From sequence record PQ438391.1: a DNA stretch of 64,000 nucleotides, one strand, 5' to 3'. A program made the position numbers and the translations under genes. Shown in pieces: positions 44,291 through 45,064 of the stretch (its first letter is position 1; every line of letters starts with the position of its first letter). Source of the DNA: Escherichia phage vB_Eco_T-01. Under the pieces are notes generated by a model. That model made no database searches and was not told where the DNA came from. It saw only the letters and a list, made by a program, of their open reading frames with translations.

Positions 44291-44440
44291 GGAGTTTGAT
44301 ATAATGATATTTCTTGGATATGTGATACTTTTTCTTGCATTTTATCTATTCACTAGAGCATGTTGGATTGGGTTCTTTAGCACACCAGATGGGTTTATTT
44401 CAATAATTTTATTTTGCATTTCAATGACGGTTCTTGATAT

Positions 44441-45064
44441 ATGAAAAAATATATAACTTATTTAACAATATATAGTGGAGATAAACTTCCTCCTTTTTAT
44501 ATTGGATCTACGTCTTTAGATAGGCATTTAGCTGGATATCATGGTTCAGTTTTATCTAAAAAGTATAAGAAAATTTATAATAAAGAGCTTTCAGATAATC
44601 CTCACTTATTTGATTCATGCATTTTAGCTGAATTTGATACGCGTGAAGAAGCTATTAAATGCGAGTTATATTATCAACGATTGCATGATGCAGTTAAAAA
44701 TCCATTATTCTTTAATATGTCATATGCTGCTCCAAAAGGTTCATTTGGAAGAGATAATAAAGGACAAAATCATCCATTATATGGTTCTCATAATTGTAAA
44801 GGAAATATACATTCACATGATCCATTAACAGGAAAATCTGCCTTTTTGCCTTATATTCCAGAAGGTTATGTAAAAGGAAGGTCAAATAAATTTAAAGCTT
44901 CATCACATAATAAAGGTAAAAAATGGTATAATAACGGAGTTAAGCAAATGTTATGTCATGAACCTCCTGGTCCTGAATGGACAAAAGGAAAAATTAAAGA
45001 ACTAGTTTCAAAAGCAGCTAAATTAGGATGGAAAAGACACCATGAAAATACTAAACTTGGGTGA
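44441..45064 (+). CDS. putative GIY-YIG (Seg-like) homing endonuclease
   Basis: 207 aa; N-terminal YITYLT...FYIGST resembles the GIY-x10-YIG module; repeated NUMOD-like NPLFFN / HPLYG / KGKKWYNNG elements; strongly AT-rich codon usage. Confidence 0.45.
   Translation: MKKYITYLTIYSGDKLPPFYIGSTSLDRHLAGYHGSVLSKKYKKIYNKELSDNPHLFDSCILAEFDTREEAIKCELYYQRLHDAVKNPLFFNMSYAAPKGSFGRDNKGQNHPLYGSHNCKGNIHSHDPLTGKSAFLPYIPEGYVKGRSNKFKASSHNKGKKWYNNGVKQMLCHEPPGPEWTKGKIKELVSKAAKLGWKRHHENTKLG

Follow-up and report, generated by a model that had tools for sequence, protein, structure and literature searches.

A Seg-like free-standing GIY-YIG endonuclease gene at the start of gene 47 in a T4-like Escherichia phage

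We analyzed a 64,000-nt window of DNA from Escherichia phage vB_Eco_T-01 (PQ438391.1), part of a T4-like (Tequatrovirus) genome whose nearest public records are ~98% identical over 20 kb. Genes on the + strand follow the order gene 55, a-gt.5 to a-gt.2, a-gt, 47.1, a 207-aa open reading frame (ORF), gene 47, 46.2, 46.1, and 46. The a-gt gene (43062..44264, +) was assigned by its match to Pfam AGT (E = 3e-236), and gene 47 (45042..46061, +), encoding an SbcD/Mre11-like recombination nuclease subunit, by matches to Pfam Metallophos and PHROG 100 ("SbcD-like"). Across the aligned block of genes 47, 46.2, 46.1, and 46, nucleotide identity to T4 is 96%. The ORF upstream of gene 47 (44441..45064, +) was identified as a Seg-like free-standing GIY-YIG endonuclease gene from the reading frame itself, Pfam and PHROG matches, homologues, and a structural model.

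A first-pass annotation, made from the letters of the window, had proposed a gene for a 207-aa protein between agt and gene 47, preceded by ~150 bp of AT-rich spacer after agt (44291-44440). Both the ORF and its position upstream of gene 47 were borne out, but its actual neighbors are 47.1 and 47, and it does not directly follow a-gt. The supposed spacer is gene 47.1 (44304..44444, +), which encodes a 46-aa predicted membrane protein and matches PHROG 6693 (E = 1.5e-31). T4 and RB14 have it annotated under this name, and only 2 nt separate it from the T4 copy. The stop codon of 47.1 overlaps the ATG of the endonuclease gene as ATGA.

A GC-rich hairpin after a-gt (AAAGGGCTTCGGCCCTTTA; 44262..44281, +) was assigned as the a-gt terminator by hairpin detection and by annotation in relatives. 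It scored as terminator-like on the - strand only, with the T-run criterion unmet on the + strand; the annotations of fPS-90 and SA20RB list the same hairpin as a rho-independent terminator, and T4 has an identical copy. A T4 middle-promoter-like motif (TTAGCTTTA, 12 nt, TATAAT; 44279..44305, +), detected by regular-expression match only, is likewise unchanged in T4; in SA20RB, this position carries the annotation "similar to T4 middle promoter." Because its -10 element overlaps the ATG of 47.1, transcription from this motif would begin within 47.1 and supply both the endonuclease gene and gene 47. A scan for sigma-70 promoters showed no enrichment over shuffled sequences, and no late-promoter TATAAATA was found in 42800-46200. 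RNA hairpins that hide the start codon have been described for mobE and I-TevI; around the endonuclease and gene 47 start codons, predicted folds were no more stable than those of shuffled sequences (z = +0.6 to +1.7).

The endonuclease gene has a GC content of 29.8% and a GC3 of 12%, compared with 31-37% and 22-29%, respectively, in its neighbors, in agreement with the AT-rich codon usage noted at first reading. The 3' end of the gene extends 23 nt into gene 47, which starts at 45042; this overlap, too, had been noted at first reading. A homologue search with the 207-aa protein returned 170 matches at E ≤ 0.001; apart from identical proteins, the best match had E = 2.5e-107. Since a 624-nt ORF in DNA of 30% GC has 170 database homologues, we consider the ORF real and chance excluded.

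Alignment with T4 revealed collinearity on both sides of a clean insertion, with 601 extra bp in vB_Eco_T-01 (44441 to 45041). In T4, the stop codon of 47.1 and the start of gene 47 overlap (GATATATGAAAATTTTAAAT...). The ATG that serves gene 47 in T4 starts the endonuclease gene here, and gene 47 begins 601 bp later; thus, the endonuclease gene has taken over the translation start of gene 47. ATGAAAA recurs at the start of gene 47, so that the T4 alignment and the junctions show the insert between two copies of a 7-nt direct repeat: the left copy (44441..44447, +) is at the start of the endonuclease gene, which is the T4 gene 47 start position, and the right copy (45042..45048, +) is at the present gene 47 start. 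The gene 47 start region therefore sits within the 3' end of the endonuclease gene. Comparing the a-gt/47 junctions, as the first-pass annotation had suggested, thus yielded exact boundaries (a 601-bp insertion with ATGAAAA at both ends). It also agreed with the remark made there that no such gene is known at this position in T4: the gene is absent in T4, T2, RB14, RB32, RB51, and ~88% of related records. The endonuclease gene is a stand-alone ORF with no intron or intein, located between conserved genes and present or absent among close relatives. Gene 47 is the host gene that adjoins the element and is its probable target region.

The N-terminus of the protein, MKKYITYLTIYSGDKLPPFYIGST, reads YITYLTIY...FYIGST. 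The AlphaFold model and alignment place a GIY-YIG catalytic domain at residues 1 to about 100 (44441..44740, +), with Tyr11 (TIY), Tyr20-Ile21-Gly22 (YIG), Glu75, and Asn92. The sole Pfam match of the protein is to GIY-YIG (PF01541; residues 4-84, E = 3e-4), with a borderline score of 21.4 bits that lies just under the gathering score of 22.6. At E ≤ 0.01, the same profile matched 16 of 52 family members. An NCBIfam search returned nothing relevant. In an alignment of 52 homologues, Tyr33, Ser39, Leu56, Phe57, Ala71, Glu75, and Asn92 are invariant, and Tyr11 and Tyr20-Ile21-Gly22 are nearly so. Using hhalign, Glu75 and Asn92 aligned to the catalytic Glu75 and Asn90 of I-TevI, within an overall I-TevI match that was marginal (28% probability). 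Position 28, the equivalent of I-TevI Arg27, is Arg28 here and Arg, Lys, or Asn across the family; the nearly invariant Lys40 might stand in for this residue.

We built an AlphaFold (AF2) model on the 52-homologue alignment. The model has a mean pLDDT of 86 (91-98 over residues 1-90) and consists of a confident N-terminal domain, two low-confidence linkers, two beta-hairpin modules, and a C-terminal helix. The N-terminal domain contains strands at residues 4-11, 19-25, and 57-65 and helices at 26-30, 40-52, and 68-81. When compared with the PDB using Foldseek, the best match was the I-TevI catalytic domain (1LN0/1MK0, probability 1.0), and other top structural matches were UvrC, Eco29kI, EndoII, and SLX1. 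Sequence searches of the PDB gave no meaningful match with either the single sequence or the 52-sequence profile, so the link to I-TevI is visible by fold comparison only. Among predicted viral structures there were 78 matches at E ≤ 1e-3; of the 50 listed, all that are named are GIY-YIG, Seg-like, NUMOD, or homing endonucleases. We consider that the fold and residue tests outweigh the borderline Pfam score. Together with homology to SegE, described below, they support the GIY-YIG-like N-terminal module that had been read from the sequence.

The repeated basic NUMOD-like elements proposed for the remainder of the protein were upheld in part. Two repeats exist, but they are SegE/SegB-type modules, and no NUMOD profile (Pfam NUMOD1/3/4) matched the 207-aa protein at E ≤ 1. 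Repeat 1 (~residues 121-148, ...IHSHDPLTGKSAFLPYIPEGYVKGRS; 44801..44884, +), delimited by the model and the SegE alignment, is a predicted beta-hairpin module with strands at 123-126 and 133-136 and a pLDDT of about 88; it aligns to the first SegE module, CYTNG...PEGFVKG. Repeat 2 (~residues 159-185, GKKWYNNGVKQMLCHEPPGPEWTKGKI; 44915..44995, +), a predicted beta-hairpin module delimited by the model and the SegE/SegB alignment, has strands at 161-164 and 169-172 and a pLDDT of about 94. It aligns to the second SegE module, WVNNG...PDGFIKGR, and to the SegB C-terminus. In the vB_Eco_T-01 protein, the modules read IHSHDPLTGKSAFLPYIPEGYVKGR and KWYNNGVKQMLCHEPPGPEWTKGK and end in PEGYVKGR and PEWTKGK. 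The AlphaFold model ends in an alpha-helix (residues 186-203; 44996..45049, +), and the last residues of the protein, HENTKLG, are encoded by the 5' end of gene 47 in another frame. Many homologues share only the N-terminal ~115 residues, followed by NUMOD3 repeats. NUMOD3 is carried by 24 of 52 relatives with the same catalytic domain, a pattern that shows domain swapping within the family.

To place the protein among T4 endonucleases, we ran the family profile against translations of SegA-G, I-TevI, and I-TevII taken from the T4 record. The scores were 36.7 bits for SegE, 28.1 for SegG, and 19.8 for SegC; the rest were lower, and I-TevI was marginal. An hhalign comparison with SegE gave a probability of 97% (E = 8e-11) over 169 columns that include the catalytic domain and both C-terminal modules. 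By these comparisons, SegE is the closest T4 relative. A profile check of this kind had been suggested in the first-pass annotation, and its result accords with the Seg-like assignment made there.

The gene matched PHROG 10820 (E = 1e-94), which is labeled "HNH endonuclease," and more distantly PHROG 314, "homing endonuclease." No HNH or beta-beta-alpha-metal motif was found in the 207-aa protein. Because no HNH signature exists, the label "HNH endonuclease," used by both RefSeq and PHROG 10820, is wrong: the fold is GIY-YIG. Orthologues in public records are the same gene at the same site, such as bas45_0171 of Bas45 PaulHMueller ("putative homing endonuclease") and the RefSeq "HNH endonuclease" entries. 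Full-text literature searches found no paper describing or testing this gene or any orthologue.

We then examined the distribution of the gene within Tequatrovirus. About 68 of roughly 585 records carry it. The flanks were matched in 523 records, and a contiguous 47.1/47 junction was present in 515; non-carriers include T4, T2, RB14, RB27, RB32, and RB51. The protein is 98-100% identical in 67 records and 90-95% identical in one more. KNP1 and KNP5 have an internally deleted copy, and in ZCEC15, ESh36, and KMB22 the protein matches in two pieces, suggesting that these copies are frameshifted. Among eight deliberately diverse Tequatrovirus carriers, nucleotide diversity (pi) was 0.023 in the gene and 0.018-0.029 in the flanks. 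A recent sweep is not supported, as diversity in the gene is no lower than in the flanks among these carriers. A scan of IMG/VR with a gene 47 motif recovered only 6 loci, all with an empty T4-type junction, which are too few for population analysis.

The right flank of the insertion carries four silent substitutions relative to T4, in gene 47 codons 3-6 (45050..45059, +; ATA CTA AAC TTG here and ATT TTA AAT TTA in T4). These occur at 45050, 45051, 45056, and 45059, and are followed by 105 bp with no difference. On the left, the last 200 bp before the insert contain two differences from T4. Linkage was examined in a sample of 17 loci, made up of nine that carry the gene (eight intact and the deleted KNP1 copy), SHFML-26, and seven other empty sites. 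Gene 47 nt 9, 10, 15, and 18 are A, C, C, and G in all nine sampled carriers, including the deleted KNP1, and T, T, T, and A in the seven typical empty sites, except that RB14 has T, C, T, and A. Other polymorphisms form a mosaic across carriers and non-carriers from the nearest variable sites onward (45-90 bp to the right and ~50 bp to the left), and in a tree of the gene 47 body, carriers and non-carriers interleave. The four substitutions lie 8-17 bp from the insert, and proximity alone could keep them linked to it.

Synthetic junction queries identified eight or nine records, such as SHFML-26, in which the site is empty and carries the carrier-type bases. The empty SHFML-26-type sequence is exactly that expected from a deletion between the ATGAAAA repeats. 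ERS-1 has the gene together with T4-type codons, in an unverified, indel-rich record with 6 gap openings in 800 nt, and for that reason we set it aside as a firm counter-example. Given that ERS-1 carries the gene with T4-type codons, the four substitutions may be unneeded for immunity.

Outside these records, orthologues 50-79% identical to the protein are located directly upstream of gene 47 in five other phages: Salmonella phage SEA1 (Gelderlandvirus), Klebsiella phage SmallBear (unclassified in its record), Serratia phage LC53 (Winklervirus), Escherichia phage QL01 (Dhakavirus), and Aeromonas phage avDM2 (Biquartavirus). In four of the five, the orthologue overlaps the gene 47 ATG, and the protein ends in ...HEN/NEN, read from ATGAAAAT in another frame. 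A terminator and a middle-promoter-like motif precede the orthologue in at least SEA1, LC53, and QL01. Across the six phages, the identities of the orthologue and of gp47 are 78.6/73.5, 71.4/69.9, 65.7/70.1, 60.6/71.3, and 50.5/52.2. Pairwise dN/dS values against the orthologues are 0.10-0.28, with synonymous sites saturated. Because dN/dS is 0.10-0.28, the identities are near those of gp47, and diversity equals that of the flanks, the gene by these measures is under purifying selection and old at the locus upstream of 47. Intergenus divergence that tracks gp47 also fits long vertical residence with losses, as opposed to frequent homing.

Taken together, we favor the reading that the gene is a functional free-standing Seg-type homing endonuclease that would cut the empty 47.1/47 allele, and we assign it a probability of about 70%. 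The Seg-like homing endonuclease put forward at first reading is supported in substance, the errors being in details only (the spacer that is 47.1 and the repeats that are SegE-like). Of the two outcomes named there as refuting it, namely no GIY-YIG profile match or the same gene at this locus in all relatives including T4, neither was observed. In the protein, flexible linkers would join the GIY-YIG domain to a presumed DNA-binding part made up of two SegE-like beta-hairpin modules and a terminal helix. During co-infection with a relative that has an empty junction, the enzyme would bind near the 47.1/47 junction and make a double-strand break. The break would be resected and repaired by recombination-dependent replication on the carrier template, and the 601-bp gene would be copied into the recipient with a few tens of bp of flank, resulting in localized marker exclusion. 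The carrier itself would stay uncut owing to a site interrupted by the insertion, to the four silent gene 47 changes, or to both. For these steps, we infer nuclease activity, target, self-immunity, and expression timing by analogy with SegA-G and I-TevI (PMC2988022). Under this reading, the alleles observed would represent stages in the life cycle of a homing gene: an occupied site, a decaying gene, a resistant-type site from which the gene has been lost, and an empty, susceptible site.

The main rival is a long-resident, domesticated gene, retained since the expression of gene 47 depends on it or since it regulates the operon or aids phage competition, with patchiness due mainly to losses. 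Several observations are consistent with this idea. Orthologue identity tracks gp47 identity across the six phages, and the position and the overlap with gene 47 are the same in four other named genera and an unclassified Klebsiella phage. The diversity of the gene equals that of its flanks within Tequatrovirus, with no sign of a sweep, and empty sites with carrier-type substitutions resemble precise deletions between ATGAAAA repeats. The endonuclease gene contains the gene 47 start region and occupies the original translation start; host promoters inside T4 endonuclease genes are a documented mechanism of retention (PMC2988022). However, ~88% of relatives thrive without the gene and have the same upstream sequence as gene 47 start region, and the catalytic residues are invariant, which a purely structural or regulatory role would not need. 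The interleaving of carriers and the linked adjacent substitutions also resemble short-tract gene conversion. These two features are compatible with co-conversion, and flank-like diversity and the tracking of gp47 also fit vertical descent and loss. On balance, we regard domestication as unlikely.

An inactive relic of a homing endonuclease, persisting merely for want of a deletion so far, is less likely than domestication. The deleted or apparently frameshifted copies in KNP1, KNP5, ZCEC15, ESh36, and KMB22, the Pfam score under the cut-off, and the canonical Arg that is not conserved would agree with decay. They stand against an intact ORF with 98-100% protein identity in about 65 records, dN/dS values of 0.1-0.28 across genera (although synonymous sites are saturated), a confident structure model, and the conservation of Glu75, Asn92, and both Tyr motifs, which are invariant or nearly so. 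We give even less weight to a GIY-YIG nuclease with a non-homing role, whether a general attack on host or competitor DNA, as by T4 EndoII/DenA, or repair with gp46/47. T4 EndoII and UvrC are among the structural matches, and the gene adjoins the recombination nuclease genes 47 and 46. However, its nearest relatives by sequence and architecture are SegE, SegG, NUMOD3-bearing paralogues, and annotated homing endonucleases, and it is dispensable in most relatives. Presence or absence at one exact site with linked silent changes is also what marks a mobile gene, as opposed to a core function.

Returning to the homing endonuclease, a more specific proposal may be raised tentatively, as possible though rather doubtful. 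The gene may be no transient invader but an ancient partner of gene 47 that keeps to this locus, lying directly upstream of gene 47 and overlapping it; it would predate the split of Tequatrovirus, Gelderlandvirus, Winklervirus, Dhakavirus, and the Aeromonas Biquartavirus and co-diverge with gp47. It might persist because short-tract homing continually returns it to the highly conserved start of gene 47, which contains the phosphoesterase motif I codons (GDWH), or because it is useful to the phage. If so, the endonuclease gene would adjoin a gene whose product resects the breaks that it makes.

Seg-type endonucleases drive localized marker exclusion and mosaicism in T4-like phages and, to our knowledge, studies have been confined to T4's own and a few more (e.g., SegH and Hef). 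The present gene is an uncharacterized member of this type that public records already call a "putative homing endonuclease." Unequal endonuclease content among close T4 relatives is also well known (PMC2993671). What the locus adds is a natural system with exact boundaries, a candidate four-base silent immunity polymorphism, empty resistant-type alleles, decayed copies, and same-site orthologues. No concept is changed by it; the modest points are that the gene keeps to the start of gene 47 in several genera and that its natural alleles form a clean set. Carrier phages can be obtained from public collections (e.g., Bas45 from BASEL), making this a handy case for the persistence of a homing gene beside an essential gene, and the enzyme might offer a new GIY-YIG specificity for engineering. 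The analysis also flags a systematic mis-annotation ("HNH endonuclease") in RefSeq and in PHROG-based pipelines.

Among known systems, I-TevI is intron-encoded, whereas the gene described here is not located in an intron. By Pfam, the 207-aa protein has no zinc finger, NUMOD3 helix, or helix-turn-helix. Its sequence similarity to I-TevI is marginal, as noted above, and the equivalent of I-TevI Arg27 is not conserved in its family.

T4 SegG and SegF, known for intronless homing and localized marker exclusion, are also free-standing genes located between conserved genes that they overlap or abut. The population pattern at the 47.1/47 junction is compatible with co-conversion of nearby markers. 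Tight linkage is limited here to 18 bp, whereas the cuts made by SegG and SegF, in genes 32 and 56, reportedly lie as far as a few hundred bp from the respective insertion sites. A further likeness is that the expression signals of the downstream gene are embedded in or adjoin the endonuclease gene, as they are for the essential genes downstream of SegG and SegF, whose signals lie in or beside the endonuclease gene (PMC2988022).

T4 SegE is the closest counterpart. SegE activity has been shown experimentally (Kadyrov 1997, as cited in PMC2988022), whereas nuclease activity of the 207-aa protein would be expected by analogy. The two proteins share only ~24% identity over aligned columns, and a "SKKYK" helix here takes the place of "AIKKYG" in SegE. 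The genes also differ in location and presumed target: segE lies between inh and uvsW, with uvsW as the target, and the present gene lies at 47.1/47, with that junction as the target. Despite these differences, the proteins are nearly equal in length (205 aa in SegE and 207 aa here), and both combine a GIY-YIG domain (signature "YIGxxS...GYxGS") with two modules of the common form "W-x-N-N-G ... P-[ED]-G-[FW]-x-K-G-[RK]".

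The 207-aa Seg-like protein encoded between genes 47.1 and 47 shares a divergent GIY-YIG catalytic domain with many homologues from our database search (P0030-P0044, P0048, P0064, and others), at 50-70% identity over approximately 115 residues. In these homologues, which come from other phages, the C-terminal regions are quite different, consisting of NUMOD3 repeats, an I-TevI-type zinc finger, or an I-HmuI NUMOD-like domain. The genomic sites of these paralogues also differ from that of the 207-aa protein's gene. One nuclease lineage has clearly swapped its DNA-binding domains here. 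The gene is labeled "HNH endonuclease" in several RefSeq records (including NC_054916, NC_054911, and NC_054901), and PHROG 10820 and pharokka-style annotations carry the same label. Because the fold is GIY-YIG and no HNH motif was found in the 207-aa protein, we conclude that this label is a propagated mis-annotation.

Upstream of the endonuclease gene, the -10 element (TATAAT, 44300-44306) of a middle-promoter-like motif, identified by pattern match only, shares bases with the gene 47.1 ATG. Transcription from this motif would yield messages without the 47.1 start codon, in which the first gene would be the endonuclease gene in the window and gene 47 in T4. Expression of gene 47.1 would then rely on read-through of the a-gt terminator.

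The glucosyltransferase gene a-gt (43062-44264) is only 90.8% identical to its T4 counterpart, whereas its flanks are 96-98.5% identical. It is also the most polymorphic of the genes compared across eight phages carrying the endonuclease gene (π = 0.051, maximum 0.12). This pattern suggests allele exchange or diversifying pressure at a-gt. A divergent patch lies in the 3' part of gene 46 (approximately 47942-48141), where each of two adjacent 100-bp bins contains 23-24 mismatches to T4 against a background of 0-7 per 100 bp. Judged by this mismatch profile, the patch is a short mosaic stretch of foreign sequence.

Citrobacter phage PhiZZ23, which also carries the endonuclease gene, has an extra annotated "homing endonuclease" gene of 284 aa between 46.1 and 46 (positions 4565-5419 of its locus, L021) that is absent from both the window and T4. 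Therefore, several different mobile nuclease genes occur in the gene 46/47 region. T4 itself has mobB, a 795-nt HNH homing endonuclease gene, at the site matching 42996-43061 of the window, between a 57-aa a-gt.2-like ORF (42822-42995) and a-gt. mobB is absent from the window, where approximately 24 bp between two BLAST blocks stand in place of approximately 860 bp in T4, and all six further carrier phages examined share this mobB-less arrangement. Relative to T4, the region has thus gained one endonuclease gene, the Seg-like one, and lacks another, mobB.
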